Positions 971-53,733 of a DNA stretch of 64,000 nucleotides are shown piece after piece. The position numbers and the translations under genes were made by a program. The stretch comes from a virus, in IMG/VR virus record IMGVR_UViG_3300020020_000026, positions 18,287-82,286 of that record; one strand, given 5' to 3'. Each line of letters begins with the position of its first letter. The first letter of the stretch is position 1. Below the pieces are notes generated by a model, which searched no databases, had not been told where the DNA came from, and saw only the letters and a list, made by a program, of their open reading frames with translations.

Positions 971-2046
971 AAGCCGCGCCTACACTCTGCGATGACCTCT
1001 ACCGGGCGAGCTACAGCAAGGATCGCGTGCCCGGCTGGACCGACAACGCGAAGTGGCGCGATGCTCTGCGCCGGGCAAAAAAGTTCGTCCTGGACGACGA
1101 GATGAGTACCTTCCTGGGTGAGCTGGGCACCGCCGCCTTCACGCGGGACAAGCTGTCCCTGGTGGCGCGGACCAAGACCATCGAGCATCTGCGCATGGGC
1201 GCGCGACTGCCCGGCGAGATCGTCTGGGTCGAGTACAATCTCCAGAAGTCGATGACGCGCAGCAACGAGCTGCTCGGCCGCCCGTTCGATCCGTCGCAGA
1301 CGCCAGAGAAAGAGGGCTGGCTCCTGATGCGGCATCCGCACCTGGAGACGGCGTTCATCTCGCACATCGTCACGCGAGACGTGGGCACGGACCACGGCGA
1401 CGGATTCGATACCTGGACGTTCCCGGTCGCGCTCGCCTGGACTGCCGACATGGACACGGTGATCCCGTGGCGGCCGATTCCGCTCACCGGAGCATCCGCC
1501 GCGCCGTCCGAAGTCTGCACCGGCCTGATCGGCTACAAAACGGACCGCGCCGCAATCGTCTTCAGCGACATGATCCGCACGCCGGATGCCCCGGCGGCCC
1601 TGGCCAATCTGCTCCGCGAATGGGTCGGGGTGCAAAGGAGAATGTGGGCGTTCTTCGCCTGCATCAACGACCTCCCCGTCCTGGTGACGGAGGTTAAGGC
1701 GTCGCGCGGCTTCATGGGCGCGCGGAACTACCGCAAGTTTTTAGACCATAAGACCGTCACCCTGACCGTGCCGCAGAAGCTGTACCGCAAGACCATCCGC
1801 GACGCCCTGGCGATAGCGCACCGACGCGGCGGCCCGGTTCGGGGGCACTGGCGGCAAGACTGGCGCAATCCGCTGTCCCCGCTGTGCGATCACGACTTTG
1901 GAGCCGACGAGGCGCATATGTTCTGCAACCACTGCAAGGGCAAGAAAATCTGGATTCGGGACTTCATCCGGGGCGACACGTCGCGCGGGTTTGTCACGAC
2001 GGACTTTCGGGTAACCCACCCTGTGGACAACGATACGACCACTTGA
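967..2046 (+). CDS. Hypothetical phage protein (C-terminal VRGHWR...WI motif, CxH..CxxC)
   Basis: 359-aa ORF; stop codon lies inside the repeated promoter motif. Confidence 0.8.
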   Translation: MKAAPTLCDDLYRASYSKDRVPGWTDNAKWRDALRRAKKFVLDDEMSTFLGELGTAAFTRDKLSLVARTKTIEHLRMGARLPGEIVWVEYNLQKSMTRSNELLGRPFDPSQTPEKEGWLLMRHPHLETAFISHIVTRDVGTDHGDGFDTWTFPVALAWTADMDTVIPWRPIPLTGASAAPSEVCTGLIGYKTDRAAIVFSDMIRTPDAPAALANLLREWVGVQRRMWAFFACINDLPVLVTEVKASRGFMGARNYRKFLDHKTVTLTVPQKLYRKTIRDALAIAHRRGGPVRGHWRQDWRNPLSPLCDHDFGADEAHMFCNHCKGKKIWIRDFIRGDTSRGFVTTDFRVTHPVDNDTTT

Positions 2047-2070
2047 CATATAGGGTCAGGCGTCCTAAAT
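2034..2070 (+). promoter_or_regulatory. Repeated promoter/tandem operator, copy 1
   Basis: TACGAC-CACTT-GACATA plus TAGG-N9-CCTA; CTTGAC-N17-CTAAAT. Confidence 0.8.
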
Positions 2071-2098
2071 ACTGGACATACAGCAAGGAGGAGAAAAG

Positions 2099-2503
2099 AT
2101 GGTGATGAAGTTAGGAAGCGGCACCGGGAGCCTGGTGAACCATGTACTGAGCCGGATGACCAAGGACCAGCCTGAGCCGCAACTGGGCGACGGCGCGACC
2201 TTGCTCCACTGGTCGGACCGCGAACCGGCGACCGTGATCCACGTCCAGGCGACCAAGCTGGGACTGGTGGTGGCGGTACGGGAAGATCACGCCCGGCGCA
2301 CCGACGACCGGGGCTTCTGCGAATCGCAGGACTACGAGTACACCCCCAACCCGAATGGCCGCATCCACTACTTCCGCCTGGAGCCCGGCAAGGGCTGGCG
2401 CGAGATCACCCCAGGCAAGCGCCTCAACACCTACAAGCTGACCGGCAGCGGTCAGGGCCTCCGGATCGGCGAGCGCGAGAAGTACCATGATTTCTCGTTC
2501 TGA
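2099..2503 (+). CDS. Hypothetical phage protein (GDGAT...SDR motif)
   Basis: AAGGAGGAG RBS directly behind the promoter. Confidence 0.8.
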   Translation: MVMKLGSGTGSLVNHVLSRMTKDQPEPQLGDGATLLHWSDREPATVIHVQATKLGLVVAVREDHARRTDDRGFCESQDYEYTPNPNGRIHYFRLEPGKGWREITPGKRLNTYKLTGSGQGLRIGEREKYHDFSF

Positions 2504-2693
2504 CCGCAGGACTGAGGTCCAGAAGCTCCGAGAGCGCGCCAAGTTCGGCGGGTGCCGGTGGTTTCTCAAGTGCGACAACCCGGCGACAACGACCCGGCCG
2601 CACCCGGTACTAGGCGACGTGCCGATCTGCCAGCGGTGTGCCGACAAGATGACTGCAATCGAAAACGCAACCAAGGAAAGGAATGAGAAATGA
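2487..2693 (+). CDS. Small Cys/Zn-finger-like protein
   Basis: CxxxxxC...CxxC; overlaps neighbours. Confidence 0.55.
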   Translation: MISRSDRRTEVQKLRERAKFGGCRWFLKCDNPATTTRPHPVLGDVPICQRCADKMTAIENATKERNEK

Positions 2694-2989
2694 CTGACAT
2701 CACCTCGCTAGACTTACAGGCCGCATTTCTTGATCAAGAAGTCGCTGGCATGGCCAGGGGCAGAGCCTACTGCTTCGTCGCGGTGGTCGGCTATCCCAAG
2801 GGATGGAAACTGGGCGTCGCCTTCGCCAACGAGCAGGGCTACATCGCCACGACCAAGGATTTCAAGACCGAAGCGGAAGCGCGCGACTACGCCGAGCGGA
2901 TGAACCAGCACATCGGACGTTCCGATGACGAATGCATGCGGATCGTGATCTCGACCATGGGCGGCCAGCGCTACCGCCGGGTGGCGTAA
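2690..2989 (+). CDS. Hypothetical protein
   Basis: ATGA overlap, purine-rich RBS. Confidence 0.7.
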   Translation: MTDITSLDLQAAFLDQEVAGMARGRAYCFVAVVGYPKGWKLGVAFANEQGYIATTKDFKTEAEARDYAERMNQHIGRSDDECMRIVISTMGGQRYRRVA

Positions 2990-3165
2990 TGGCAACCTGG
3001 ACATTCGAGCTGGTCTGCCCGCGCTGCGGCAAGGAGAGCCAAAGCGTAAGCGAGAACAACGATCCGCCGCCGACAGTCAATTGCGGCGACTGCCTGATGG
3101 AGGCGGTCGAGATCGTGGAATTCGAGATCGTCCGCGCAACCGTAGACGCACAAGGAAAACTCTGA
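2989..3165 (+). CDS. Small Zn-ribbon protein (CPRC...CGDC)
   Basis: TAATG-coupled start MATWTFELVCPRCG. Confidence 0.6.
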   Translation: MATWTFELVCPRCGKESQSVSENNDPPPTVNCGDCLMEAVEIVEFEIVRATVDAQGKL

Positions 3166-3524
3166 TGACACCGCGCCAATACCATGAAGCGCTGAAGGAG
3201 CTGGGCCTAACCGTCGCCAGCCAGCGAACCGCGAAGCTTCTAGGCGTCAACATCCGGCAGAGCCAACGCTATGCCAGCGGTGATGCGGAAGTCCCGGAGG
3301 CTGTCGAGCGGCTCCTGCAGATGTATGCCCTGCACGGCACCAACGAGACCAGGAAGGTGGTGAAGTGCGGCGAAGAGGAAATCGAGCTAATCCATATCGA
3401 GGACAACCTGTGGGACGCCAATTTCCCCTGGGGGACAGAGCGCGTCGTCAGCGATAGCAGCGAGCTAACCTCAACTGTTCGCGCCCGATTCAAGAAAAAG
3501 ACGGCGGCGCTCGATGCCGAATAA
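3165..3524 (+). CDS. XRE/Cro-like HTH DNA-binding protein
   Basis: YHEALKELGLT...TAKLLGVNIRQSQRYASGDAEVP; paralogous to 55250-55519. Confidence 0.7.
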   Translation: MTPRQYHEALKELGLTVASQRTAKLLGVNIRQSQRYASGDAEVPEAVERLLQMYALHGTNETRKVVKCGEEEIELIHIEDNLWDANFPWGTERVVSDSSELTSTVRARFKKKTAALDAE

Positions 3525-4002
3525 ACCGGACCTCCAGGCGCTGATCAGGAGCGCGTCGAAGAATGTGGAGATCATCTTCCGCAAGACCGGCGAGCTGCTC
3601 CCGATGTATCACGCGGTCACCAGCTACGGGCAGACGATGATCGTCCCGCAGCCCGATCCCAACAAGGACGTGTCGGTGGCGCTGATCAAGATGCTCTTCG
3701 CGGAGGAAGACGTTGCCTACTATTGCTTCATCGCCGAAGCCTGGATGCTTGCCGCCGTCAAAAATGTGCCTGCGGTGGACATCGAAAAGGTCGCGCGCCA
3801 GGGCCTGGAGTATCACCCTGACCGGCGCGAGATCATCGCCTTCTCGGCCGAGAGCCGCGACGGCCAAGCGCAGACTGCCAGGCGCTTCATCCTGCGCCCG
3901 GAGATGGGCAAGCCAACGCTGTCGCCGCTGATCATGGACAACATGGAAGGGCGCACATCGGAAGGCCGGATGGTCGGACTGCTCACAAAGGAGAAACCGT
4001 GA
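3514..4002 (+). CDS. Hypothetical phage protein
   Basis: 162-aa ORF in operon (FIAEAWM, HPDRRE motifs). Confidence 0.75.
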   Translation: MPNKPDLQALIRSASKNVEIIFRKTGELLPMYHAVTSYGQTMIVPQPDPNKDVSVALIKMLFAEEDVAYYCFIAEAWMLAAVKNVPAVDIEKVARQGLEYHPDRREIIAFSAESRDGQAQTARRFILRPEMGKPTLSPLIMDNMEGRTSEGRMVGLLTKEKP

Positions 4003-4304
4003 TGAAGTGGATTGTTGCAACTGCATTGGTTCTCACTGCCTCCGCCGCATCGGCACAGGAGAATCGCGCCCGCTACTACTACGACGGCGAGCGGCACATT
4101 GGCCCGGCGCTATCCGGCACCATGTACGACGCGGCCGGTCGCAATGTCGGAAAGACCCGCACCCACAGCGACGGCTCGACAACGATCTACGGCAACGATG
4201 GCCGCGTCATGGGGCGCAGCTCGACCGACAGCCAGGGCACGACGATCTTCTACGACGCGGCCGGGCGCAAGACAGGCACCGCTGTCCCGAATGGTGCCCG
4301 GTGA
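3999..4304 (+). CDS. Secreted protein with short beta repeats (YDAAGR)
   Basis: Signal peptide MKWIVATALVLTASAASA; repeated TxYDAxGR. Confidence 0.7.
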   Translation: MMKWIVATALVLTASAASAQENRARYYYDGERHIGPALSGTMYDAAGRNVGKTRTHSDGSTTIYGNDGRVMGRSSTDSQGTTIFYDAAGRKTGTAVPNGAR

Positions 4305-4719: not shown

Positions 4720-4786
4720 CATCGACGGTAGGACAACCTGTCCTACTATCGATGAACTTTCGTTCATCAGCCAGATGCATCTGGCT
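4720..4786 (+). promoter_or_regulatory. Palindromic operator-like site and tandem hairpins upstream of the VPLPA-CTERM gene
   Basis: GTAGGACA-ACC-TGTCCTAC; GATGAAC-TTTC-GTTCATC; perfect 18-bp palindrome AGCCAGATGCATCTGGCT. Confidence 0.55.
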
Positions 4787-4803: not shown

Positions 4804-5595
4804 ATGTCGCTTAAGCATTTGTTAGGAGGGCTGGCCGTACTGGCCGCCACGACACTTCCCGCCAAGGCCGTCCTTCTTGGGAACGATGCCCAAGATTGGA
4901 ACTTGGCAGGAGCGGCAACCCTGCAACTCACCAACGCAGTGCCGACAGGGCAGCAGACGAGCAACATCCCCTGCATCATCTGCGGTGCCCATCAGCCCCA
5001 ACAGCCGAATTTGCTGGGATATAACTGGTTCGGCAACACCGGCAACGCTAACACGGTCAGCTTTTTCTCGACCGCTGCAGTACCAACTGGTCCGGGTGGA
5101 CTTGCTCAGGATACACTCGGGACCGGCTACTCACTTCTGCCCGGCAGTCCGTTGTTGACGGCGTTGCAGGGCAACCTGTCGTTCACCATCGGCGTCGATG
5201 TGAACGATACCAACACGCCGCAGACGTTGGAGTCATTCTGGATTTTGAACCTGACTGACCACACCGTTTTGGCCGTGTTCTCGCCAAATCCTCTCGACGG
5301 TCAGCTACTGATCGCCGCGAACAACGGAACGGGTTTCCCCGATATGACTCTTAGCTTGTTGGGTGGCTCGCTGATCAATCTGTCGAACGTCGATCCGAAT
5401 GATACGATCCTGTTCTTCGCAAGGATCACGGGCGCGAACGACGGGCCGGACTCCTTTTTTATAGTCCCGCAAGTGCAGGCCGTTCCGCTTGGACCGGCCG
5501 CCTGGTACTTCGGTGCCGGGTTGTTCGGACTTCTCGCACTCCAAAGGCGGCGTAAGCGCAAGCTGCTTGAACAGCAAGGCGCAGTCGCAGCGTAG
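4804..5595 (+). CDS. Exported protein with VPLPA/PEP-CTERM-like sorting signal
   Basis: N-terminal signal peptide; C-terminal AVPLGPAAWYFGAGLFGLLALQRRRKRK. Confidence 0.8.
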   Translation: MSLKHLLGGLAVLAATTLPAKAVLLGNDAQDWNLAGAATLQLTNAVPTGQQTSNIPCIICGAHQPQQPNLLGYNWFGNTGNANTVSFFSTAAVPTGPGGLAQDTLGTGYSLLPGSPLLTALQGNLSFTIGVDVNDTNTPQTLESFWILNLTDHTVLAVFSPNPLDGQLLIAANNGTGFPDMTLSLLGGSLINLSNVDPNDTILFFARITGANDGPDSFFIVPQVQAVPLGPAAWYFGAGLFGLLALQRRRKRKLLEQQGAVAA

Positions 5596-6333: not shown

Positions 6334-6446
6334 TGCGTCTCGTCCTGGTGATCGCGCTGCTCCTGTCCGGTTGCTCCAGGCACTACGAGCGGACCGATCC
6401 AATCCCGCAGTTATGCAAGGATTTGGGCAAGGGCGACTGCCGATAG
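6333..6446 (+). CDS. Small lipoprotein (37 aa)
   Basis: Read manually: MRLVLVIALLLSGC lipobox, two further Cys. Confidence 0.6.
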   Translation: MRLVLVIALLLSGCSRHYERTDPIPQLCKDLGKGDCR

Positions 6447-6480
6447 CGGCGCGGCTCGCCCTATGTTTTCCGTGTCAAGC

Positions 6481-6580
6481 ATTTTTTAAAATTCAAAATA
6501 ATCATTATGCGTCAATGGGCCATGTACGTCGTTTGGACGTATAGTCCAACTTCAGCAAAAGCCATTTGCTATAATGCCTT
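6481..6580 (+). promoter_or_regulatory. AT-rich promoter region with operator copy 2
   Basis: TACGTC-GTTTG-GACGTA at 6525-6541; TATAAT at about 6570; AT-rich tract upstream. Confidence 0.65.
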
Positions 6581-6644
6581 TGTCAGTTGGGATGAGCCCA
6601 CCTGGCAGGCTGTTTGAAATTGTAAACCAGAAAGGAAGTAACCA

Positions 6645-6791
6645 ATGGCTCACAAGCCAGTGGACGGCCCGGTCTATCTCGACTTCAAGGGATGGTTCTG
6701 GGTCGAGTGGATCGGCCAACGGTCGATCTATCACGGACCTTACCGCACGGAGGCTGACGCGAGAGCCAAGCACCAGGCGGTGAAGTCATGA
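6645..6791 (+). CDS. Hypothetical small protein (48 aa)
   Basis: AAAGGAAG RBS; MAHKPVDGPVYLDFKGWFWVEW...GPYRTEADAR. Confidence 0.6.
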   Translation: MAHKPVDGPVYLDFKGWFWVEWIGQRSIYHGPYRTEADARAKHQAVKS

Positions 6792-7662: not shown

Positions 7663-7699
7663 TACGTCCTATTGACGTATAGGCTGTTATGCCCTATCT
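7663..7699 (+). promoter_or_regulatory. Repeated promoter/tandem operator, copy 3
   Basis: TACGTC-CTATT-GACGTA plus TAGG-N9-CCTA; ATTGAC-N17-CTATCT. Confidence 0.85.
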
Positions 7700-8300: not shown

Positions 8301-8338
8301 TAGGCCCCATTGCCCTATACGTCCCCAGGACGTATATC
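8301..8338 (+). promoter_or_regulatory. Repeated promoter/tandem operator, copy 4 (site order swapped)
   Basis: TAGG-N9-CCTA (8301-8317) directly followed by TACGTC-CCCAG-GACGTA (8318-8334). Confidence 0.8.
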
Positions 8339-40623: not shown

Positions 40624-40674
40624 TTCAATCTCCTGGGTTGATCTTGATCGAGTAGGACACTATGTCCTGCCGTT

Positions 40675-40729
40675 GGCGAGGCGAGGCCCGGTACGGCCCG
40701 GTACGGTCAGGCGAGGCGAGGCAGGGCAG
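40675..40729. repeat. 11 tandem GGNNN pentamers
   Basis: GGCGA GGCGA GGCCC GGTAC GGCCC GGTAC GGTCA GGCGA GGCGA GGCAG GGCAG. Confidence 0.85.
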
Positions 40730-40737
40730 GCATGTTT

Positions 40738-40768
40738 GGAAGGAGGGGTTCGCCCCTCCTTCCTTTTT
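40738..40768 (+). terminator. Intrinsic terminator oriented on the plus strand
   Basis: GGAAGGAGGGG-TTCG-CCCCTCCTTCC-TTTTT. Confidence 0.75.
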
Positions 40769-40772
40769 CAGT

Positions 40773-42869
40773 CTACCAGGTCACGCCCGCCACGAATGAA
40801 ACGACACCAGCGCGGCGCATCGTCCAGTTCATCGGCAGGATGAGTCGAAGCGCCAGTGAATCCGTCTGGAACATCGAGACGGCGGGAGCCGCGACAACGC
40901 CAGGGGTTCCGGCGGTGCCGATATGCGCAGGCGAGGTGTCCTCCATGTGTAGCGTAGCTTGGTCGCTGATCTCAAACCTCGGATTGTCGCCAGAGATCGA
41001 GACGTAGTCGGCCGCGTCGAGGCACAGCACCGTACCGAGAGGCACGGTCCCGCTCTTGATCACCGGATAGCCCATCAACCGATTGTTGTTGATGTCCGTT
41101 GCGAACGGGAAGAGCCCGCCCGGCACCGGAGGCTGCACGAACCCAATCGACAGCGCCTGTTGCGGGTTCATGATGAAGACCATCGAGCGGACGTTGCCGT
41201 TGGTCGCCGTCAGGATCGAACCGGACAGCCCCTTGAGATCGCCAACGAGGGCGTTGAAGCCGCCGCCTGCGGTCGGGGTCAGGCCGACAACGCCGTTGCG
41301 CAGACCGGCGGGACGAATGGTCGTCGCCGGGTTGGCGTCGAGCAGGATGGTGTCGATGGCGATCTGCGTGTCTTCCTGGATGGCATTGCGCAGAAGGCCT
41401 TCGATGGCGGGCACGGAATGCTCGTCCATCTCCCTCGTCCAAGTCGTAATCACGGCCATCTTTTTCGGAACCATCGAAGTGGTCGTGAACGCGGCCTGAC
41501 GCACCGGGATCGGAGCGCCTTCACCGACGAACGAACCGGCCACGGTCGGCGTCGCCGCTCGGGTCGGCACGTTGATCTTGCCGTTGCGGCCGAAGCTGAG
41601 CTTGAGGCCCATCGCTGACAGCGACGGGTAGACCGAAGACGGCAGAAGGCTCGGCATCAGATCGGCATTGATCTGTTGCACCAGCTCGGCCGCCCAGCCA
41701 GCGACGGTCGTCATCGCCGGGGCGGTCGCCGCCTTCAGCGTGAGATCGCAGATGACCTTGGTGGCTTCATCTTCGCCGTAAATCTTCTGGCGAATCTGAT
41801 CGATGGTAAAGCCAGCGAAGTCCGGAGCCTTGGACAGCGCCTTGATCGTACCGGCGCGGACCAGGAACTCGATGGGGTCGATCTTCTTGGCCGGGAGGTT
41901 GAACGGCCGGGCGCTAGCGGTCGCGCGCAGGGCCACCTTGGTCTTGCCGTTGCCGTTGCCGTTGTCCTCGCTGGACTGTGCGGCCATCTGGGCCTCCGAA
42001 TCTTCCAGGGCCTTGAGCGCCAGCACCTGATCGCTGATGCGCTTGTTCAGCTCCTGGGTGGTCGCGAGATCGGCCTCGGTGACGTTCTCGTCGTCAACCT
42101 TTTCCAGATGCTCGTTCAGTTGGTCCCGCAGCGCGACAATGCGCTGTTGGGTAGCTTCGATGCGTTTCGTAAGGGGTGACATTGTCACTGTCCTTGTGTT
42201 CGGTTTCGACTTGGCTTGCCCGCCGTTGAGACCGCGACGTTCGGCGCTCTGGTCTTTCTCGTTGCCATGCCCGGCAAAGACCATTGCGACGGTGTCGCGG
42301 GAAATCTTGAGCGATTTTGCAATCGCCAGTGCGTTCGGGTTGGCCGGGATCGCGACCAGGGAGGTCTCGACCAGCTCGGCCTGTTTGAATCGGTAGCCGC
42401 CGCTGCCGTCCTTGGTGATCGGCTCCGCCACTCGCGGCAGGAAGCCGACGCTGACCGCCTTCAGAATGTCGGCCTCGATCAGCCGGTGGATTTCATCGAT
42501 CCGTTCGGAGGTGCCCAGCGGCGCTAGGCGCAGCTCGCCGCGCAGCTCGCCGTCCGCGACTTTCAGATTGTGCCACTTGCCGATTGGAAAGTTCGGATTG
42601 TGGTTGAACAGCGCGACCGGATTGCGCTTGAAGTTGACCAAGTCCCAGCCCTCGGCCTCGATGATGTCGCCCATGCGGTCCGGGCTAGCGTCCGACAGGA
42701 TGAAGGTCAGCCCGCCGACATCGGAAACGTGCGTCTTGCGGACGACCTTCTTGGCGGCGCGCTCGTCCCATTGCAGGGCGCACGCCTCCTCGTCCCCGCC
42801 ATCGCTGACGCAATGCTCCATGAATTCTTCGCGGGTATCGAAATCGTCCGGAGAGGCTTTGGTCTTCAT
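40773..42869 (-). CDS. Prohead protease (HK97/S78) fused to major capsid protein
   Basis: DRMGD, LFNH, SVGF, ETSLVAIPANPNA, then HK97 capsid (FVGEGAPIP, SMFQTDSLALR). Confidence 0.93.
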   Translation of the reverse strand: MKTKASPDDFDTREEFMEHCVSDGGDEEACALQWDERAAKKVVRKTHVSDVGGLTFILSDASPDRMGDIIEAEGWDLVNFKRNPVALFNHNPNFPIGKWHNLKVADGELRGELRLAPLGTSERIDEIHRLIEADILKAVSVGFLPRVAEPITKDGSGGYRFKQAELVETSLVAIPANPNALAIAKSLKISRDTVAMVFAGHGNEKDQSAERRGLNGGQAKSKPNTRTVTMSPLTKRIEATQQRIVALRDQLNEHLEKVDDENVTEADLATTQELNKRISDQVLALKALEDSEAQMAAQSSEDNGNGNGKTKVALRATASARPFNLPAKKIDPIEFLVRAGTIKALSKAPDFAGFTIDQIRQKIYGEDEATKVICDLTLKAATAPAMTTVAGWAAELVQQINADLMPSLLPSSVYPSLSAMGLKLSFGRNGKINVPTRAATPTVAGSFVGEGAPIPVRQAAFTTTSMVPKKMAVITTWTREMDEHSVPAIEGLLRNAIQEDTQIAIDTILLDANPATTIRPAGLRNGVVGLTPTAGGGFNALVGDLKGLSGSILTATNGNVRSMVFIMNPQQALSIGFVQPPVPGGLFPFATDINNNRLMGYPVIKSGTVPLGTVLCLDAADYVSISGDNPRFEISDQATLHMEDTSPAHIGTAGTPGVVAAPAVSMFQTDSLALRLILPMNWTMRRAGVVSFVAGVTW

Positions 42870-46958: not shown

Positions 46959-48202
46959 TACTCGACGGCCTTCTTGTAGCGATAGCTCAATTTCACTGGC
47001 TCCTCGATACCGGCCGAAGGGTTGCTGAGCGGGGCTCGATAGACGTGGCCACTGTTGTCGTCCAACTCGATGAACAGGTTTCCGAAATTACTGATCGCTG
47101 CGAACTGCGGCGCGGTCAGCGTCTGCTCTGCGGTTACGAACGTGTCGCCAATATCGGTGTGCGTCCACTCGGCAATCTCGGTCGAGCCTTCGAGCAGGCG
47201 CACCGAAAGATCGGCGCTCACGATCAGAGGCGACTGGATGAAGTCGGCGTCGTTGGCGCTCGCCTCGTCTATCGCCTGGTAGATGTTGCTGGTGCCACCG
47301 GAATGATCGGTCCAGCCATTCAACGCCGTGTCGCCGTCAGGGCGCAGATAATCCAGGGCGAGGCTGTCCGATACATCGCCAACAAATGACGCAGTGTCTT
47401 CGGCCTCGACCGCAACAAGCGGTCCGCTGAAAACCTGGTTGGCAACGGTGCCGTTGAACAGCGCAACGTCCGCCGCCTCGGTCGCCGCCAGCGGCCCCGC
47501 GCTCGTAACCGTCCCAACAAACGCCGCGATGTCCGCCGTCTCGACAACGGCCAGCGGCCCGGTAGCTGGCGCATAAACGTAGTCTGTTGTTACGAACGAG
47601 GCCTGATAGAACTGCGCGGTGCAGGAGTTGCTGGTGCCAACCGTCGTCGTCAGCCACTCGACCTGAAGAAACAGATACTCGTTTGTCAGCACGACTTGCG
47701 GCGCGGCCCACGTCACCGTGGAATTGTAGGTTGTCGTCGTCGTTGACAGCGTGATGATCGTGCCAACCAGCGTCGCTGAAGTCAGCTTGCGAGCGCTGGA
47801 CCCGTCAGCATTAACCGAAGCCCACATGATGCAGCGGACGCGACCGGCATTCGATGCCGCGCCGGTCCGCATGCCGAAGGTGAAATTCCAATTGCCCGCC
47901 GCGAACGTGCCGTTGAGCGGAGCATCGGATCGGAATGAATCGCCAGCCGTCGTCGCGGCGTTGCCGGTGCCCGGAACGGGGCGGGTCTGGGCGTCGATCC
48001 AGCTCGCCGCCTGCGCCACGGTCGAGCGCGCGGTAGCGCCGATGCGCCCGCGCCAGTACGGCGTCGTGATCGCGGTCTTGGCAACTGTCCAGCCGAAGGC
48101 GCTGAGCGCACCGGCAGGCGCGGTGCCGTTATCCTGGACCTTGCCAAACCAGTCTGGCGCGGTGGCTGCGGTGTTCAGCAGATAGATGGTCTGGATCGCC
48201 AT
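46958..48202 (-). CDS. Structural protein with EAADxAxFxG repeats
   Basis: Shares repeat with 43174-44763; LRPDGD motif. Confidence 0.7.
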   Translation of the reverse strand: MAIQTIYLLNTAATAPDWFGKVQDNGTAPAGALSAFGWTVAKTAITTPYWRGRIGATARSTVAQAASWIDAQTRPVPGTGNAATTAGDSFRSDAPLNGTFAAGNWNFTFGMRTGAASNAGRVRCIMWASVNADGSSARKLTSATLVGTIITLSTTTTTYNSTVTWAAPQVVLTNEYLFLQVEWLTTTVGTSNSCTAQFYQASFVTTDYVYAPATGPLAVVETADIAAFVGTVTSAGPLAATEAADVALFNGTVANQVFSGPLVAVEAEDTASFVGDVSDSLALDYLRPDGDTALNGWTDHSGGTSNIYQAIDEASANDADFIQSPLIVSADLSVRLLEGSTEIAEWTHTDIGDTFVTAEQTLTAPQFAAISNFGNLFIELDDNSGHVYRAPLSNPSAGIEEPVKLSYRYKKAVE

Positions 48203-48451
48203 CTAGTCCACCCAGGCGAAGCTGAAGGTGCAGCGGTCGTAATCCTTGATATGAACCGGGTCGCTCGGCCACACTGAACACCCGCGCGCCCAGTAGGTAT
48301 CGACCGTGCCGTGGATCGAGCAGAGCCGCTCGCCGCCAGCTTCGGGTTTCAAATACGGACAGGCACCGTCATGCTGTTCGGGCAAGCCGTCAATGCCGCC
48401 TCGGCAGCATTGGCCGCAGCGGCAACATTCGCCAGACCGCACCCATGCCAT
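48203..48451 (-). CDS. CxxCxxCC (YkgJ-like) Cys-cluster protein
   Basis: CCRCGQCC...CPYL...CSIH...CSVWP. Confidence 0.7.
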   Translation of the reverse strand: MAWVRSGECCRCGQCCRGGIDGLPEQHDGACPYLKPEAGGERLCSIHGTVDTYWARGCSVWPSDPVHIKDYDRCTFSFAWVD

Positions 48452-48455
48452 GCTC

Positions 48456-48839
48456 TCATGCCGCGTGCTGGATCGTGCCGCTCGTCAGCGTGACAGTCTG
48501 ACCGGCCGAGATGGTGGTGCTGTTGAGCTGGATGTCGCCCGTGCCGACGCCAACCGTGAGGCCCTGGACAACAACCGTGCCGGTGCTGTCCTTGATGCGC
48601 GCGATGGCCGCCGTGCCGGAATTGTCCGCCGCCGTGTCGGTCATGCCCGGCGTGTTGTCGAAGGTGAGCATGTCACCCGACACTGTTGCGCTCGGGTCTT
48701 GCAACGTGATGGTTGCCAGCACCAGCGCATAAGCCGCCGTGCAAATCTCGATGTAGCCCGCCGCAGGACCGCCATCGATAGCGGTGACGACCGCGTTCAT
48801 GCGAGTGGTTTTGAGTGCAGCACTGTAGTTAACCGCCAA
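48456..48839 (-). CDS. Small structural protein (paralog A)
   Basis: AGGAGG-TTG start; ARIKDSTG, GDIQLNS. Confidence 0.75.
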   Translation of the reverse strand: MAVNYSAALKTTRMNAVVTAIDGGPAAGYIEICTAAYALVLATITLQDPSATVSGDMLTFDNTPGMTDTAADNSGTAAIARIKDSTGTVVVQGLTVGVGTGDIQLNSTTISAGQTVTLTSGTIQHAA

Positions 48840-48854
48840 GGTCGCCTCCTTTGA

Positions 48855-49232
48855 TTAAGCCGGTGCCGCGTATGTCATCGATGTCAACGACACTTGCTGC
48901 CCGGCCGAGATGTTGACGCTGTTCAACTGGATATCGCCGCCGCCGCCGGTCGCCGTAACTGAGCAAGCGAACACCTCGACGCCGGTACTGTCTTTCGCGC
49001 GTGCCTTGGCGATGGTGCCGCCGGTCGCGCTGGCATCGGCCACGATGGGGTTGGCAGTTGCCACGCCACTGACCGCAGCGGCGAACGCCGGATCGGCGAA
49101 CGTCAGCGTCGCGACCTCCACGTCGCCTGCGGTCTGAAATTCGAGCGTGCCTGGCCCGGACCCGGCGTCGATGCGCAGCACGACGAGATTTGCGATAGCG
49201 GTTCGAACGACAGCGGGATGAGTTACCGCCAT
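48855..49232 (-). CDS. Small structural protein (paralog B)
   Basis: ARAKDSTG, GDIQLNS. Confidence 0.75.
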   Translation of the reverse strand: MAVTHPAVVRTAIANLVVLRIDAGSGPGTLEFQTAGDVEVATLTFADPAFAAAVSGVATANPIVADASATGGTIAKARAKDSTGVEVFACSVTATGGGGDIQLNSVNISAGQQVSLTSMTYAAPA

Positions 49233-49235
49233 GAG

Positions 49236-49445
49236 TTACTCCCTTCCGATGACGGCGGAATCAGCCCCGCCCAATACGATCAGCCCGGCCTCGATCCAGT
49301 CCGGTATCAGCGAGCGCAGCAAGCGATCCTCGGCGCTGGCCAGGTAGGTGAGCCCGGCGACGTACTCGCTGTGCGTCGCCTCGCTATAGAAGCTTTCGAC
49401 CACGGTGAAGCTGGCCGGGCCGTTGAACAGGGCGATTTCAGCCAC
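49236..49445 (-). CDS. Hypothetical protein
   Basis: AGGAG RBS; first gene of the minus-strand unit left of the inserted block. Confidence 0.6.
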   Translation of the reverse strand: MAEIALFNGPASFTVVESFYSEATHSEYVAGLTYLASAEDRLLRSLIPDWIEAGLIVLGGADSAVIGRE

Positions 49446-49507
49446 GGCTAATTTCTCCTGTGCTTTCAGCGGGTTGCGCCCACAGAAAAAAGATCGAAAA
49501 TAGTTGC

Positions 49508-49544
49508 TATGTCCCCTTGACGTATAGGCTCACTTGCCCTATGT
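49508..49544 (+). promoter_or_regulatory. Repeated promoter/tandem operator, copy 5
   Basis: TATGTC-CCCTT-GACGTA plus TAGG-N9-CCTA; CTTGAC-N17-CTATGT. Confidence 0.88.
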
Positions 49545-49654
49545 AGGGGATGGAAGGAACGGAGCGCCTCCCCCGCCCTCGGGAGCCACGCGAGACTAGG
49601 GGCAGAAACGCCCGGCCAGAGCGGTAAATCTGGCCTCCAATTCGGAGGCACAAA

Positions 49655-50128
49655 ATGACCCGGAAACTTCTCTTCGAGAGCAAGACATGCTCCCGCTGCG
49701 GCGGAAGCGGCAAGTTCTCCTGGTGCCAGATGCACGGCGATATGTGCTTCAAGTGCCACGGCGACGGTGTGGTCCTCACCAAGAAAGGTCGCGCCGCCCA
49801 GGTCTGGCTCAACGCCAAAAAGCGGAAGCGCCTGGGCGAGGTCGCGGTCGGCGACTGGGTCTTGAGCGAAGGCATCGCAGGCTTTTCCGCTTCCTTCTGG
49901 GTCAAGATCGACGCCATCGAAGGCGCGGGCGCAGAGCTGAAAGCCACCGGCCTGAACAAGCGCGGCGAGCGGCACGGCTGGCAGGGCGACATGGAAGTCC
50001 AGATTTTCAAGGGCAAGGCCTGGGCCGCCGAGCTGGCCAAGGAAGCCCTCGCCTTCCAGGAGACGCTGACAAAAACCGGAACGGTTCGGAAGGTGAAAGC
50101 GAAAAAGAAGGAAGCGGAGGCAGCATGA
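49655..50128 (+). CDS. DnaJ-type Zn-finger (CxxCxGxG) protein
   Basis: CSRCGGSG...CFKCHGDG. Confidence 0.75.
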   Translation: MTRKLLFESKTCSRCGGSGKFSWCQMHGDMCFKCHGDGVVLTKKGRAAQVWLNAKKRKRLGEVAVGDWVLSEGIAGFSASFWVKIDAIEGAGAELKATGLNKRGERHGWQGDMEVQIFKGKAWAAELAKEALAFQETLTKTGTVRKVKAKKKEAEAA

Positions 50129-50487
50129 TCAAGGTTCGATACATCACCCTCGACGGCGTCAACAAGCTGCGCAAGTTCAAGACCCTCGCGGGCGCGCGGA
50201 AGTTCGCACTGGAATGGGTTGGCCCGCAGGATGTCGAAGGCGGCTACTACGCGGTCAGCGACGACGGGGTCGGCAAGGTCACCTGGCAGGGCTGCACCCG
50301 CCGGGAGCTATTCGGGGACAACGAACCGGACCAGATCGACGCCGCCTACAAGGCCGACAAGGCCGCGCTCGACGCCGCTTATGCCAAGGCTGTCGCCAGC
50401 GGCTCACAGGCCGACAACGAATTTTACCTCGCCCTCAAGGCTGAGTTCGACTGGACCTACGAGCCATCCAAAGGAATGAACCAATGA
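50125..50487 (+). CDS. Hypothetical protein
   Basis: GGAGG RBS; MIKVRYITLDG. Confidence 0.7.
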   Translation: MIKVRYITLDGVNKLRKFKTLAGARKFALEWVGPQDVEGGYYAVSDDGVGKVTWQGCTRRELFGDNEPDQIDAAYKADKAALDAAYAKAVASGSQADNEFYLALKAEFDWTYEPSKGMNQ

Positions 50488-50675
50488 GCCGAAACGAACC
50501 GCGACCCTGCCCATGCGGCAGCGGACTCGACAGCTACTGGCAGTTTGACGCCAGAGGAATCGAGTTGTGCCGTGCCTGCCCGAAGTGCCGGAAGGCGAAG
50601 CTGGCCCGCTACCGGAAAGAGGTGCTGACCGACAGCGCCTACCAGGCGGACGAGCCGATAGAGCCGCAGGACTGA
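50484..50675 (+). CDS. CPCGSG (SEC-C-like) Zn protein
   Basis: CPCGSG...DARGI..CRACPKC. Confidence 0.7.
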   Translation: MSRNEPRPCPCGSGLDSYWQFDARGIELCRACPKCRKAKLARYRKEVLTDSAYQADEPIEPQD

Positions 50676-50697
50676 AGTCCTGTAACATATCGTGATC

Positions 50698-50734
50698 TAC
50701 GTCCCCTGGACATATAGGTCCGATTGCCCTATAT
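50698..50734 (+). promoter_or_regulatory. Repeated promoter/tandem operator, copy 6
   Basis: TACGTC-CCCTG-GACATA plus TAGG-N9-CCTA; CTGGAC-N17-CTATAT. Confidence 0.88.
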
Positions 50735-50787
50735 GAAGGGTGAAGGGAAGGGCCGCCCCGGCCTCCCCAGTGAGAAGGAACCCCGCC

Positions 50788-51066
50788 ATGGCATTCGCCC
50801 CCTACGCAGCCTGCGTGAAGAAGATGGTTTGCGGTGGCTTCAGAACTGCCCCCGGCCATTGGTTCGAATATGCCAAGCCGGAAGCGGGCGAGTTCCTCCC
50901 CTTCCCCGGCTACGAGATGAAGGTGTTCGTCGGCCCGGTCGAGGGCGAGTTCCGGTGGGCCAAGGTCGTCGCCACCCGCGCCTACGTAGTGGTGGAAGAG
51001 GCGGCCGGTGGTGAGCCGGTGGTCGAGAAGTGGGCGATCAAGGGCCACAAAAAATACGCGGTATGA
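50788..51066 (+). CDS. Hypothetical protein
   Basis: AAGGA RBS; stop codon inside the next operator. Confidence 0.7.
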   Translation: MAFAPYAACVKKMVCGGFRTAPGHWFEYAKPEAGEFLPFPGYEMKVFVGPVEGEFRWAKVVATRAYVVVEEAAGGEPVVEKWAIKGHKKYAV

Positions 51067-51098
51067 CCCATTGACATATAGGCCTAGTTGCCCTATGT
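51062..51098 (+). promoter_or_regulatory. Repeated promoter/tandem operator, copy 7
   Basis: TATGAC-CCATT-GACATA plus TAGG-N9-CCTA; ATTGAC-N17-CTATGT. Confidence 0.85.
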
Positions 51099-51123
51099 AG
51101 GGTGTGAAGGAAGGAGACAAGTC

Positions 51124-51288
51124 ATGAAGAGCTACTGGACCTACCGCGCCGCGTCACCCACGCCGGAATATCACGAAGTGCCGGAAGGCGCTTTCAAAGG
51201 GAGCGAAAAGGAGTGGCACGCTTTCTCCCCCGGAATGCGCCGCGAGATTGTCCGCTCGTTCAAGAAAAAGATGTCTACGTCCACTTGA
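51124..51288 (+). CDS. Hypothetical small protein
   Basis: AAGGAG RBS; stop codon is the TGA of the next -35. Confidence 0.7.
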   Translation: MKSYWTYRAASPTPEYHEVPEGAFKGSEKEWHAFSPGMRREIVRSFKKKMSTST

Positions 51289-51312
51289 CATATAGGCTGA
51301 TCTGACCTATCT
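51276..51312 (+). promoter_or_regulatory. Repeated promoter/tandem operator, copy 8
   Basis: TACGTC-CACTT-GACATA plus TAGG-N9-CCTA; CTTGAC-N17-CTATCT. Confidence 0.88.
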
Positions 51313-51363
51313 ACAGTGTGAAGGGAAGCGGTGGTCGCCTCCCGAAAGAAAGGAGCCTCTCTC

Positions 51364-51777
51364 ATGTATCTCGCGGAATTCAAACCGGCCGGTGCCAAGG
51401 GCGCAGCCGCCAAATTCGAAGCGGCGCTCGTCAAGGCAATCGAGGCCGGTATGGCGGCCGGTGCCGGTAACAAACCCCGCGCCATGGTCGTCCAGGAGAT
51501 GGTCGGCATGACCAGCGAGGTCAAACAGTCCTGGTACGAGAGCGAGGGAGCCTGCGGGTTCGCTTGGGTCAACGTCGCCCCCGGCAATTCGCCCTTTGCG
51601 AACTGGTTGAAGAAAGCCGGTCTCGCCAGAAAGTCCTACTACGGCGGGGTCGATATCTGGATCAGCGACTTCGGGCAGAGCGTGGACCGCAAGGAAGCCT
51701 GCGCGAGCGCGATGGCCAAGTGCCTCCAGATGGAGCTGGGAATGTCCAGCATCTCCTCGATGAGCCGGTTGGACTAA
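51364..51777 (+). CDS. Conserved phage hypothetical protein (G.CGFAWV)
   Basis: AAGGAG RBS; CGFAWVNV...QSVDRKEA...SRLD. Confidence 0.8.
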   Translation: MYLAEFKPAGAKGAAAKFEAALVKAIEAGMAAGAGNKPRAMVVQEMVGMTSEVKQSWYESEGACGFAWVNVAPGNSPFANWLKKAGLARKSYYGGVDIWISDFGQSVDRKEACASAMAKCLQMELGMSSISSMSRLD

Positions 51778-51826
51778 CGGATCAACCAACGGGGGCCGCC
51801 CTCGCGGTCCCCAGAAAGGAACGGAA

Positions 51827-52021
51827 GTGAAGAAGCGCAAGACCAAGGCCGAGAAAATGGCCGAGATGGATGTCCAAGCCGCGATCTACGGCCTCGTCAT
51901 CCCGATGATGAGCATCCCGCCGATGTACAAAGCGATGAAGGCGGCGGCGATGGAAGGCAAGTCCAAAGCAGAGCTGCGCGCAATCGCCGCCAGCTACCCC
52001 GGAGTAAAGGAGAGCGCGTGA
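51827..52021 (+). CDS. Hypothetical small protein
   Basis: AAGGA RBS, GTG start. Confidence 0.6.
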   Translation: MKKRKTKAEKMAEMDVQAAIYGLVIPMMSIPPMYKAMKAAAMEGKSKAELRAIAASYPGVKESA

Positions 52022-52257
52022 TGCACAAGGTTGTCCCCTACGCCTACTGGCGCGACCCGGCCACCGGCCAGGCTTTCTCGATCTACACCGCCTGGAAGCC
52101 GGATGGCTGCGTCCTCGAAACCAAGGGCTACACCATCGCCTGGAGCGATGGCACCAGCGGCACCGGACGCCCGGCATTCGAAACCGAAGCCGAAGCGGAG
52201 GCCTACCTCGCCAAGGTGCCCAAGGGATTTCGCGGAATGAGCATGGTGGCGTCATGA
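52018..52257 (+). CDS. Hypothetical small protein
   Basis: AAGGAG RBS; overlaps neighbours. Confidence 0.65.
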   Translation: MMHKVVPYAYWRDPATGQAFSIYTAWKPDGCVLETKGYTIAWSDGTSGTGRPAFETEAEAEAYLAKVPKGFRGMSMVAS

Positions 52258-52442
52258 CCTACAAAGTCAGCGACATCGCCCACGAAACGCCGCGCCACGT
52301 TGTGTTGCGTGTCGCCAAGGGCTTCGAGGTTTACCAGCGCGGTACGTGCGCCATGACCCGCTGCGCCACCATCGGATTCAAGGGCGAGGAGGGACTCAAG
52401 CGCGCCGTCGCGGAAGTCGAGCGCAGGGAGAGAGCGAAGTGA
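52254..52442 (+). CDS. Hypothetical small protein
   Basis: ATGA overlap. Confidence 0.6.
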   Translation: MTYKVSDIAHETPRHVVLRVAKGFEVYQRGTCAMTRCATIGFKGEEGLKRAVAEVERRERAK

Positions 52443-52684
52443 GCCAATACGACGAAGACTTCGACGCGGGCAAGCGCGCAGCCGCGCGCGAGCTGCAGCC
52501 CCTGGTCGATGCGATCAGCGACGCGATCTTCATGTTCAACGACATCGGCAAGGCGCGACAGCTCCCCGCCACGTCCCAGGCCGTCAACCAGTACGTCCAG
52601 ATGGGCAAGCAACTGGAGCGGTGCCTGCGCCTGTCCCCGCTTCGGCATTTGATCCCAGAACGGAAAGAGGATACGTCCACTTGA
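52439..52684 (+). CDS. Hypothetical small protein
   Basis: GTGA overlap; stop codon is the TGA of the next -35. Confidence 0.6.
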   Translation: MSQYDEDFDAGKRAAARELQPLVDAISDAIFMFNDIGKARQLPATSQAVNQYVQMGKQLERCLRLSPLRHLIPERKEDTST

Positions 52685-52708
52685 CGTACAGGGCCAGGTG
52701 CCCTATAT
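52672..52708 (+). promoter_or_regulatory. Repeated promoter/tandem operator, copy 9
   Basis: TACGTC-CACTT-GACGTA plus CAGG-N9-CCTA; CTTGAC-N17-CTATAT. Confidence 0.88.
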
Positions 52709-52723
52709 CTAGTTCGAAAGGAG

Positions 52724-53233
52724 GTGGTTCCCGTGTTGGTCGAGAAGGCCCACGCCTTCGCCAAAGTGGCGCACGCGGGGGTTACGAGAATGGGCTCCGG
52801 TGAGCCCTATGTGGAACACGTCGAAAGGGTCGCCATGACGCTGACGTGGCTTGGGTTCCCTGAGCATGTCATCGCCGCCGCATACCTCCACGACGTAGTC
52901 GAGGACGCGGGCGTCAGCTCTGAGGAGCTGGCCGAGAAGTTCAGCCCGGAGGTCGCCGCCCTGGTGGCGGAGGTCACCAACCCGGTGCTGCCCAAGGCCC
53001 CAGGAAACCGCGCCTGGAGAAAGAGCGAGGAGGTCAAGCACCTCGCCAAGGCGAGCTACTACGGGGCCTCCCTGAAGCTCGCGGACATGCTGGACAACTC
53101 CAGCAACGTCAGAACCAACGCCCCGGAATTCGCAAAAACCTACCTCCCGGTGCTGGCCGCCAAGCTGGAGGTACTCGGCCACGGGCACCCGGAACTCTAC
53201 GCCAGGGTCAAGGCCAACATCACGAAAGCGTGA
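52724..53233 (+). CDS. HD-domain small alarmone hydrolase-like protein (Mesh1/SpoT HD)
   Basis: AHAG..R..SGEPY..H...VA, AAYLHDVVED, V.EVT, KLAD.LDN. Confidence 0.88.
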   Translation: MVPVLVEKAHAFAKVAHAGVTRMGSGEPYVEHVERVAMTLTWLGFPEHVIAAAYLHDVVEDAGVSSEELAEKFSPEVAALVAEVTNPVLPKAPGNRAWRKSEEVKHLAKASYYGASLKLADMLDNSSNVRTNAPEFAKTYLPVLAAKLEVLGHGHPELYARVKANITKA

Positions 53234-53235
53234 TA

Positions 53236-53272
53236 TACGTCCCCTGGACATATAGGCTTCTATGTCCTATAT
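53236..53272 (+). promoter_or_regulatory. Repeated promoter/tandem operator, copy 10
   Basis: TACGTC-CCCTG-GACATA plus TAGG-N9-CCTA; CTGGAC-N17-CTATAT. Confidence 0.88.
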
Positions 53273-53297
53273 CTCTCTTGTTGGAGAGGAGAGAGAA

Positions 53298-53387
53298 ATG
53301 ACCGCCGTGTTGAAGACCAAGACTTTCTGGGTGGAGCAAACCTTCGGATGGTTCGTCACCGCCACCTGGTTCTACTGGTTCTATTGA
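53298..53387 (+). CDS. 29-aa aromatic-rich peptide
   Basis: GAGGAG RBS; MTAVLKTKTFWVEQTFGWFVTATWFYWFY. Confidence 0.55.
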   Translation: MTAVLKTKTFWVEQTFGWFVTATWFYWFY

Positions 53388-53397
53388 GGAGGTTCGA

Positions 53398-53691
53398 ATG
53401 AACTGGAATCGCGAAGACGATCACCTGGCCACCCCGGCCGAAGCGGTCGCTGAGTTCGCCCGCAACATCGGCGGCGAGTACCCGGATCGCGCCTGGTTGC
53501 TGCACGACTGGGACGTTTGGGTCGCCAACCCCCACTACAAGGGACCACCGGTCCCGCACCCGGAAGACTACGACCCGGAGGAGGGCTCGGAAGCCCCAGG
53601 CTTCGATGATCCCTCCCGCGCGGACGAGTTCAAGTCGGACGGCCCCGCCGAGATGGACGACAACCCAGGTGACGACGAAATCCCATTTTAA
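53398..53691 (+). CDS. Acidic protein ending DDEIPF
   Basis: GAGGAGG RBS; NPHYKGPPVPHPED core; SSB-Ct-like tail. Confidence 0.75.
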   Translation: MNWNREDDHLATPAEAVAEFARNIGGEYPDRAWLLHDWDVWVANPHYKGPPVPHPEDYDPEEGSEAPGFDDPSRADEFKSDGPAEMDDNPGDDEIPF

Positions 53692-53696
53692 TTCGC

Positions 53697-53733
53697 TACG
53701 TCCCCTTGACATATAGGCTACAAAGCCCTATGT
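53697..53733 (+). promoter_or_regulatory. Repeated promoter/tandem operator, copy 11
   Basis: TACGTC-CCCTT-GACATA plus TAGG-N9-CCTA; CTTGAC-N17-CTATGT. Confidence 0.88.

Follow-up and report, generated by a model that had tools for sequence, protein, structure and literature searches.

A 34-bp unit recurs ahead of small genes in the genome of a soil phage from IMG/VR (record IMGVR_UViG_3300020020_000026, hereafter G000), which raises the question of what the unit does and what protein reads it. The window analysed here comprises the final 64,000 bases of the 82,286-bp record, whose completeness rating is 100%; positions refer to this window unless given as genome positions. The initial annotation had regarded the units as a genome-wide set of promoters, each with two abutting 17-bp operators controlled by one repressor, and as boundaries at which gene cassettes recombine. 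The analysis below makes it reasonably probable that the units are early promoters with two operator classes, that these are read by paralogous phage repressors, and that the same units act as seams for gene exchange.

Two abutting sites at the early genes

Each complete unit consists of two 17-bp sites. Site A (TAYGWC-N5-GACRTA) occurs in 11 copies in the window, exactly where the initial annotation had located them. Nine of the copies read identically on both strands, and the resulting 20 strand-wise matches compare with an expectation of 0.01, a number that none of 100 shuffled sequences reached. Site B (TAGG-N9-CCTA) has 10 matches in the window against 0.12 expected: eight lie directly 3' of a site A, one (8301) lies directly 5' of a site A, and one (4729) stands alone. 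A variant of site B that starts with CAGG, at 52689, brings the abutting A/B pairs from nine to ten, the number that had been claimed, and the site A at 6525 has no B partner. The swapped order of B then A at 8301-8334 was likewise present. The whole record contains a 12th site A at genome position 17666, 620 bases 5' of the window, and a weight matrix built from the copies detected nothing further above background. The term genome-wide was an overstatement, since every copy is confined to two + strand early blocks of small genes (genome 17.6-26.6 kb and 67.8-72.0 kb). These blocks are separated by a 40-kb late block on the - strand.

Four TGA codons within the motif (2044-2046, 51064-51066, 51286-51288, and 52682-52684) end the called open reading frames 967..2046, 50788..51066, 51124..51288, and 52439..52684, so that all four stop codons noticed earlier were borne out. 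The similar leaders described at about 7704, 8342, and 53736 were also present.

The units coincide with predicted host-type promoters

In the available part of PMC2873474, CTTGAC-N17-CTATAT is given as the sigma-70 motif of the alpha-proteobacterium Sinorhizobium meliloti. With at most two mismatches in 12 positions, this motif was matched 13 times on the + strand and not once on the - strand of the whole G000 record, where 1.4 matches were expected. Ten of the 13 matches were cassettes (nine in the window and one outside it), and an 11th was the own promoter of g125, one of the small helix-turn-helix (HTH) genes considered below. Among the 12 copies of site A, those that did not fit were the swapped unit at 8301 (3/12 mismatches) and the copy at 6525 (5/12). 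The right half of A forms the -35 element (TTGACA/G, then TA), and B fills the 17-bp spacer and runs at its right end into the first bases of the -10 element, as had been proposed for the nine window copies that fit the motif. All the cassettes point at downstream genes that have Shine-Dalgarno leaders. Collectively, this anatomy supports the prediction that the 34-bp units are promoter-plus-operator cassettes with a promoter of the CTTGAC-N17-CTATAT type.

The position of a dyad in a spacer could also suit an activator of early or middle genes, of the MerR or class II type. MerR-type activators indeed bind dyads in promoter spacers, and the -10 hexamers of G000 lack a T at position 6. An activator is nevertheless highly improbable, because MerR promoters have spacers of 19-20 bp as opposed to the optimal 17 bp found here, and because the hexamers match the host consensus at 10-12 of 12 positions and would need no helper. 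Moreover, the candidate proteins are made from the same promoters, which would result in runaway positive feedback, and the same units are present in an established prophage, where early genes must be off.

The search for terminators gave no enrichment of terminator-like sites (5 against 8.0 expected, and 8 against 8.3), and none was found between the + strand cassettes, so that read-through from cassette to cassette is expected. The RNA folds of six cassettes had energies of -7.6 to -13.2 kcal/mol (z -0.9 to -2.0) and no U tract. A hairpin or terminator function of the unit was rejected because the folds are weak and differ among copies and because positions 3 and 15 of site A show no helix-like co-variation. 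No Sigma70_r4 match that would indicate a phage sigma factor was obtained in four records.

Conservation of the dyads in related phages

G000 is a myovirus whose genes include those for a large terminase, a tail sheath, and a capsid protein fused to a protease. Searches of isolated phages with megablast and blastn revealed no close relative, only short baseplate matches, and the large terminase is at most 61% identical to that of any isolated phage. Alignment of the capsid protein led to 35 loci in bacterial genomes that resemble prophages. The nearest of them is a prophage of Bradyrhizobium sp. SRL28, with 71% identity over the best capsid segment and 86% in the sheath, and the remaining loci belong to Bradyrhizobium, Xanthobacteraceae, and Sphingomonas. 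A tyrosine integrase is present in the complete relative G002. The prophage relatives together with this integrase indicate, at the level of gene content, that the lineage to which G000 belongs is temperate.

The same design was found in at least 15 related metagenomic phage contigs and in the SRL28 prophage, and the motif is retained while the proteins of these relatives are ~45-80% identical. Other records held 13, 9, 8, and 6 palindromes, compared with 0-2 for a control pattern. A looser pattern gave 68 stretches in viral contigs, most with a single match, and only multi-site loci were used. The exact 34-mer pattern had no match in 185,579 species genomes; the SRL28 prophage, with a site A that belongs to the TAGG class, escaped this pattern for that reason and was later identified through its capsid. 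In the 9.7-Mb SRL28 genome, 12 of 12 exact TAGGNC-N5-GNCCTA sites fall within C1:552,339-622,330, a 70-kb interval round the prophage, whereas the reversed control pattern had 32 matches in the genome. This restriction of B-type sites to the prophage argues against a host transcription factor regulon that the phage merely exploits, and such a regulon is almost certainly not the explanation.

The left halves of A and B sit outside both hexamers yet mirror the right halves. Neither the spacer nor the region 5' of the -35 element is read base-specifically by sigma-70. In the relatives, B is a perfect 6+5+6 palindrome, either TAGGCC-N5-GGCCTA or TAGGGC-N5-GCCCTA. An alignment of 76 distinct sites from 19 sources was anchored on the outer four pairs of B, which are thus complementary by construction; the inner B pairs were complementary in 48/76 and 63/76 sites, and the six A pairs in 54, 54, 32, 60, 18, and 62 of the 76.

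These data also bear on the idea that the units are simply copied strong promoters, read by RNA polymerase alone, with the dyads as by-products. The right halves of A and B do overlap the -35 and -10 consensus, the own promoter of g125 retains just the right half of B, and A is weakly symmetric across the family. However, across lineages whose proteins are about 50% identical, the left halves hardly vary and remain mirror images of the right halves; in addition, some palindromes stand alone at a distance from any consensus promoter, and the operator class co-varies with the HTH subtype. Promoter copying without a bound protein is therefore very unlikely. A 17-bp dyad inside an optimal 17-bp spacer is, from established promoter biology, placed where a repressor would act, and we consider it very likely that the units are operators of a phage-encoded repressor.

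A small HTH protein family accompanies the operators

A family of small Xre-like HTH proteins, designated F1, was the sole DNA-binding family common to the motif-bearing records, and G000 carries two copies. The first, g38 (3165..3524, + strand), encodes 119 amino acids with the recognition helix RQSQRY and has no promoter of its own. The second, g125 (55250..55519, + strand), encodes an Xre/MqsA-like protein of 89 amino acids with the helix RTSRRW. The two proteins are 43% identical over 53 residues. A third HTH gene, g29 (HTH_3), lies just outside the window and is not widely shared. The Pfam matches of g125 to HTH_3, Xre-like-HTH, and MqsA families were below the cut-offs (MqsA_antitoxin scored 23.7 bits against a cut-off of 30). 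A comparison with PHROGs gave transcriptional regulator families at E 6e-5, the Atlas neighbours of g125 were Xre-like HTH clusters, and a tblastn search of isolated phages returned no match.

The distribution of F1 follows that of the operators. Among the 35 capsid-related loci, paired palindromes were present only in L109 and L113, which were also the only two with an F1 homologue, and L113 shares no early gene other than F1. The complete record G009 has its only operator pair ~320 nt 5' of its only F1 gene. A search led by F1 yielded five new contigs, two of which (F1 52% and 63% identical) contain 3 and 5 palindromes against 0.07 and 0.03 expected. It is thus likely that the F1 family provides the binder. 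The HTH proteins at 55250 and 3165, which the initial annotation had singled out, stand as the best candidates on account of this co-occurrence and of the match between subtype and operator described below.

Operator class follows HTH subtype

Alignment of the F1 proteins separated a 'b' subtype, resembling g125, with the helix RT[SA]RR[WY], from an 'a' subtype, resembling g38, with a two-residue insertion and the helix RQxQR[IY]. Records with only the 'b' subtype contained only TAGGnC sites, namely G005 (13 sites), G006 (9), G007 (5), G008 (6), and L113; the G005 sites are TAGGCC and those of G006 are TAGGGC. Two of the four records with only the 'a' subtype carry only TA(C/T)GnC operators: G013 has 11 TACGnC-N5-GnCGTA sites and no TAGG site, and in G012 the sites are TATGAC and TACGCC. 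Both classes occur together in the three records that have both subtypes (G000, G002, and G010), where A lies on the -35 element and B in the spacer. No clear residue rule in the aligned F1 proteins separates TAGGCC-type from TAGGGC-type 'b' helices.

Since the operator classes track two HTH subfamilies across lineages, two paralogous repressors are a better reading than the single repressor of the initial annotation. A single protein such as g125 could in principle read both sites through the core TAnGnC-N5-GnCnTA with different affinities, in the manner of lambda OR1/OR2. A and B do share the positions TA-G-C...G-C-TA, the records L109, L113, L147, and L075 hold TAGGnC-type sites at both positions, the places of A and B are swapped at 8301, and G004, a contig that is 62% complete, has A-type sites with only a 'b' protein seen. 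Set against this are the records with one subtype and one class (13 TAGGCC sites in G005, 9 TAGGGC sites in G006, and 11 TACGnC sites in G013), the three records in which both subtypes accompany both classes, and the difference between the two recognition helices. We therefore regard a single repressor as unlikely.

With two paralogous repressors as the preferred reading, the candidate assignment of g125 to site B and of g38 to site A has an even chance of being right, judging from this covariation. A more specific form is offered tentatively and is somewhat less likely to hold than to fail: two mini-repressors would form a double lock on every early promoter, with the half-site codes TAGGnC and TAYGnC, sister lineages would have just one of the two locks, and RecT-type recombination at the 34-bp unit would shuffle promoter-plus-gene cassettes among co-infecting relatives.

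A proposed circuit for the early promoters

The gene g38 lies inside the operon that starts from the 2034 cassette, and g125 lies near the end of the operon from 53697. By these positions, both HTH proteins would be made from the promoters that they supposedly shut. In addition, g125 has its own promoter (55210..55238, + strand; GTTGAT-N17-CTATAT), which has no site A and a degenerate B in the spacer, with the right half GCCCTA intact and the left half degenerate. Seven close metagenomic relatives and the Bradyrhizobium prophage share this layout. A promoter with only half an operator would be partly on and would suit a maintenance repressor, so that g125 may also be an autoregulator.

In the proposed mechanism, a protein dimer on A or B would keep RNA polymerase off the promoter, and a complex bound between co-directional genes would also block read-through. 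Site B and the lone TAGGAC palindromes (4729 and genome position 1025) would be occupied by g125, and site A by g38. Upon infection, all 12 promoters would fire, g38 and g125 would be made, and the promoters would then be shut in an Aca-type fashion. In a lysogen, the g125 promoter would remain partially active when the full operators are bound, allowing g125 to keep the set silent. Overall, the two small phage repressors probably switch the early promoters off together.

Apparent gene exchange at the cassettes

A synteny comparison of ten sources revealed a fixed backbone with variable small genes between its members. The backbone consists, in order, of the capsid gene, cassettes including F5-F2-(F11), a single-gene HD-hydrolase cassette that has a promoter at either side, and, in last place, the 'b' gene of F1. 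Joints in environmental relatives were collected over window positions 48000-57000 from k-mer contigs (31-mer) of four soil or sediment runs from four studies. Among the joints listed, 14 of 38 ends lay within 20 nt of the motif, which makes up 5.8% of the stretch (binomial P about 1e-8), and 10 of 19 joints had at least one end at the motif. A further six listed joint ends were at gene starts or stops, and 6 of 24 listed loose ends were at the motif. The joint 50681->51274 represents a form that lacks the two cassettes in between, and 50718->51306 joins within B. In 53690->51275, the 51276 cassette directly follows the end of g119, and in 53258->51123, a copy of the 53236 promoter precedes g111. 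Chimeras created by assembly across the motif are improbable for G000, because the longest exact stretch common to two of its cassettes is 21 nt and thus shorter than the 31-mer; the argument is weaker for other strains. When assembled IMG/VR relatives were compared with one another, the motif coincided with 38 of 247 block ends, against 13.2 expected under a uniform null. The earlier proposal that gene gains and losses in relatives break at the motif is favoured by both data sets, and related phages appear, from these comparisons, to swap genes there.

As no other DNA is conserved among the variable small genes, the 34-bp unit could serve as a short homology patch at which relatives exchange, gain, and lose promoter-plus-gene cassettes. 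Genes for a YqaJ-like exonuclease and RecT are present in G000 (locus L042, genome 8159-10588, outside the window), and this pair would be a plausible catalyst that uses the 34-bp homology. The + strand block with YqaJ/RecT (genome 8.2-17.6 kb) has no operator cassettes and no homologues in G002 and G004.

Junctions that cluster at or in a motif made of inverted repeats might also arise if the units were primarily sites for a site-specific recombinase, as in integrons or shufflons, and only secondarily promoters. This is extremely improbable, given that a search of G000 turned up neither a tyrosine nor a serine recombinase, that the junction points vary (5' edge of A, centre of B, start codons) instead of marking one crossover point, and that the fit to the promoter is too good for coincidence.

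Observations that weigh against the repressor reading

Several observations count against the interpretation given above. Regarding the candidate proteins, g125 is only weakly similar to characterised repressors, with MqsA at E 0.29 and Aca2 at E 0.61 in a profile search of the PDB, and three more distant loci with F1 homologues (L153, L154, and L155) are without palindromes. Regarding the sites, the B copies of G000 itself have perfect arms of only 4 bp, and site A is a partial dyad across the family (pair 5-13 complementary in 18/76 sites and pair 3-15 in 32/76). In L070, L043, and L148, site B is present and site A is not; A may thus be dispensable or have another role, and these three lineages suggest that B is the core operator and A a lineage-specific addition.

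The correlation between subtype and class also has exceptions. Apart from G004 with its A-type sites, only TAGG-class sites were seen in the Bradyrhizobium prophage even though one of its paralogues is 'a'-like, with a helix that differs (IRHNMRIA), and G014 and G015 have 'a'-like proteins with essentially no palindromes. Most of the records are fragments and the lineages are related, so the co-occurrence partly reflects shared ancestry. Likewise, the environmental junctions derive from k-mer contigs and from the joints listed, and block ends favour any intergenic gap.

With respect to transcription, a scan for E. coli-type sigma-70 promoters does not call the cassettes. As the sixth -10 base is not T, this weighs against a strict E. 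coli-like promoter and not against a host-type one. No RNA runs holding G000 sequence were listed, and the transcription starts of the cassettes, expected about 7 nt 3' of the -10 element, are predictions. Lysogeny of G000 is likewise putative, a search of this genome for an integrase of the tyrosine or serine recombinase type having found none.

Comparison with known phage regulatory systems

Tandem 17-bp dyads that overlap promoter hexamers are a feature G000 shares with lambda. The lambda OR and OL operators are separated by spacers, belong to one class read by CI and Cro, and number six per genome; they form a divergent switch, whereas G000 has no divergent maintenance promoter. Phages P1 and phiC31 have immunity regulons with multiple operators, in which 17-bp sites are found at numerous early promoters. 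The P1 C1 repressor uses many dispersed 17-bp operators that are asymmetric, and the repressor of the Streptomyces phage phiC31 binds 17-bp conserved inverted repeats of a single class. Neither system has two abutting classes fused to the -35 element and the spacer.

The closest parallels to the predicted circuit are found in Aca2 of phage ZF40, as far as the accessible part of its description goes (PMC6765145): a strong near-consensus sigma-70 promoter has two inverted repeats over the -35 and -10 elements, small variable genes come first, and a gene for a small HTH repressor is at the operon end. Aca2 exerts negative feedback on its own promoter, and the repressor is also made in the lysogen (same source). 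A comparable layout is seen in g125 near the 3' end of the 53697 operon and in the G009 operator pair directly 5' of the F1 gene. The systems differ in that about 12 promoters per genome are wired in G000 and one by Aca2, and in that the G000 repeats abut without a gap and fall into two sequence classes that track two paralogous HTH subfamilies. In addition, the similarity of g125 to Aca2 is not significant (E 0.61), and the cassette genes of G000 have no anti-CRISPR identification.

The initial annotation had drawn analogies to T4-type PeSL elements and to mycobacteriophage stoperators, and these hold in part. As in T4-type phages, going by the available portions of the reports, small genes without known function are flanked by recurring strong early promoters of the sigma-70 kind, and indels or replacements between relatives are bounded by the element (PMC2839356, PMC4122927). 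PeSL elements have a terminator stem-loop, whereas G000 has none and instead has four upstream stop codons inside the motif; the conserved non-promoter part in G000 is a pair of protein-type dyads, and G000 is a temperate-type myovirus, probably of Bradyrhizobium-like alpha-proteobacteria, and not T4-like. Membership of the PeSL class was accordingly rejected for lack of the terminator stem-loop, although the repeated promoters and the indel boundaries were found. Cluster A phages (L5/Bxb1) resemble G000 in having a dozen or more sites over the early regions and in the possibility, proposed here for G000, that a repressor bound between co-directional genes stops read-through (sections of PMC9283540 and PMC6550527). 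Stoperators are asymmetric 13-14-bp sites, are bound by a monomer, act on elongation, and lie mostly away from promoters, according to the part of PMC9283540 that was available. The G000 sites are paired 17-bp dyads on promoters, and since 10 of 12 site A copies are within a near-consensus promoter, the units were not classified as stoperators.

What distinguishes the G000 system is that two abutting operator classes are fused to the -35 element and the spacer, that each class apparently corresponds to one of two paralogous mini-repressors, and that sister lineages have a single class. A literature search that did not cover supplementary promoter lists found no description of the motif, which may have been published elsewhere. 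In the searchable part of a paper on temperate phages of Bradyrhizobium (PMC11599138), a search for the terms showed no mention of operators or promoters.

Individual cassettes and neighbouring features

All cassettes described here are on the + strand. In the first early block, the cassette at 2034..2067 (A, 2034-2050; B, 2051-2067) has the promoter CTTGAC-N17-CTAAAT and drives g35-g42, including g38. The lone perfect palindrome of the B class, TAGGACA-N3-TGTCCTA, at 4729..4745 (+ strand) is in the spacer of a weaker promoter-like site 5' of g43 and has its twin at genome position 1025, outside the window. The gene g43 itself (window 4804-5595) encodes 263 amino acids that begin like a signal peptide and end in a hydrophobic and basic region; Pfam gave no match, and the gene resembles a lysogenic-conversion 'moron'. 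The partner-less site A at 6525..6541 falls in an AT-rich gap of ~200 bp (6446-6645), where an extended -10-like sequence, TGCTATAAT, is located ~25 nt 3' of the site. The cassette at 7663..7696 (ATTGAC-N17-CTATCT) has the conserved leader GGTGTCAGGAGAGAGGAGA ahead of g51. The swapped cassette at 8301..8334 places B on the -35 element (ATTGCC) and A in the spacer, and has the same leader as 7663. Gene calls were made by a heuristic script in which short genes and start codons are possibly wrong; the g54 call, for example, overruns the cassette at 8301, and the true start of the gene downstream of this cassette is probably the ATG at about 8366.

The second early block begins with the cassette at 49508..49541, which is oriented divergently to the late genes of the - strand and drives g107-g109. 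The cassette at 50698..50731 drives g110 and is missing in some environmental relatives, as represented by the first two joints described above. It is followed by cassettes at 51062..51095, which drives g111 and whose TGA ends g110, and at 51276..51309, which drives g112-g116, including the conserved core genes F5 and F2, and whose TGA ends g111. The cassette with the CAGG variant of B (52672..52705) matches the promoter consensus at 12/12 positions and drives a single gene, the HD phosphohydrolase g117; its TGA ends g116. The cassette at 53236..53269 drives g118-g119, and the last one, at 53697..53730, drives g120-g126. Apart from the HD phosphohydrolase, the cassette genes gave no functional match, and the roles in host takeover or anti-defence that the initial annotation suggested for them are conjectural.

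A subset of the cassette leaders contains a GC-rich stem-loop of the type GGGAAC...GTTCCC(GG) soon after the predicted start. Such leaders were found in the window at 49542-49654, 50732-50787, and 51310-51363, and also in G002, L006, and L100. In some environmental relatives, the long 49542-49654 leader is swapped for a short one (joints 49528->49655 and 49549->49655). The stem-loop may stabilise the 5' end of the mRNA or act as a regulatory RNA element. A search of G000 found no tRNA genes, and no Rfam family was matched.

Within the late region, a + strand promoter-like sequence, GTTGAT-N17-CTATGT, lies antisense between two late genes (window 40637-40775). It is overlapped by the B-like palindrome TAGGACACTATGTCCTG, 3' of which are a run of GGNNN pentamers and then a GC hairpin with a T tract. 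On the - strand, window positions 10000-49400 and 55743-63868 hold no near-consensus host-type promoter (at most two mismatches), so the late genes presumably need an activator or another type of promoter. The - strand also encodes a 228-amino-acid protein with an ADP-ribosyltransferase exoenzyme domain (window 58741-59427; Pfam E 6e-17), which adjoins two large proteins without a Pfam match. Furthermore, three IMG/VR contigs with a GC content of 0.32-0.40 (L056, L083, and L092) have several promoters of the form TTGACATA-TAGG-N9-CCTA-TA, and one of them has a perfect TAGGATC-N3-GATCCTA in the spacer. Convergent evolution, a distantly related branch of the repressor family, or the way in which the search was made could account for these promoters.

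Implications

To our knowledge, almost nothing is known of phage regulation in Bradyrhizobium-like soil bacteria. If the reading proposed here is true, it would provide a compact rule by which phages of these bacteria fire and then silence ~40 small early genes. The relatives would constitute a matched series of repressors and operators (TAGGCC, TAGGGC, TACGTC, and TACGCC) for studying HTH specificity and the divergence of superinfection immunity, and would be candidate orthogonal switches for alpha-proteobacterial promoters. The cassettes would also represent a temperate-phage case of regulatory repeats as seams for the exchange of accessory genes, which have so far been documented for T4-type phages. 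Finally, if the double lock were true, immunity types would evolve by the gain, loss, or swap of operator/repressor pairs.

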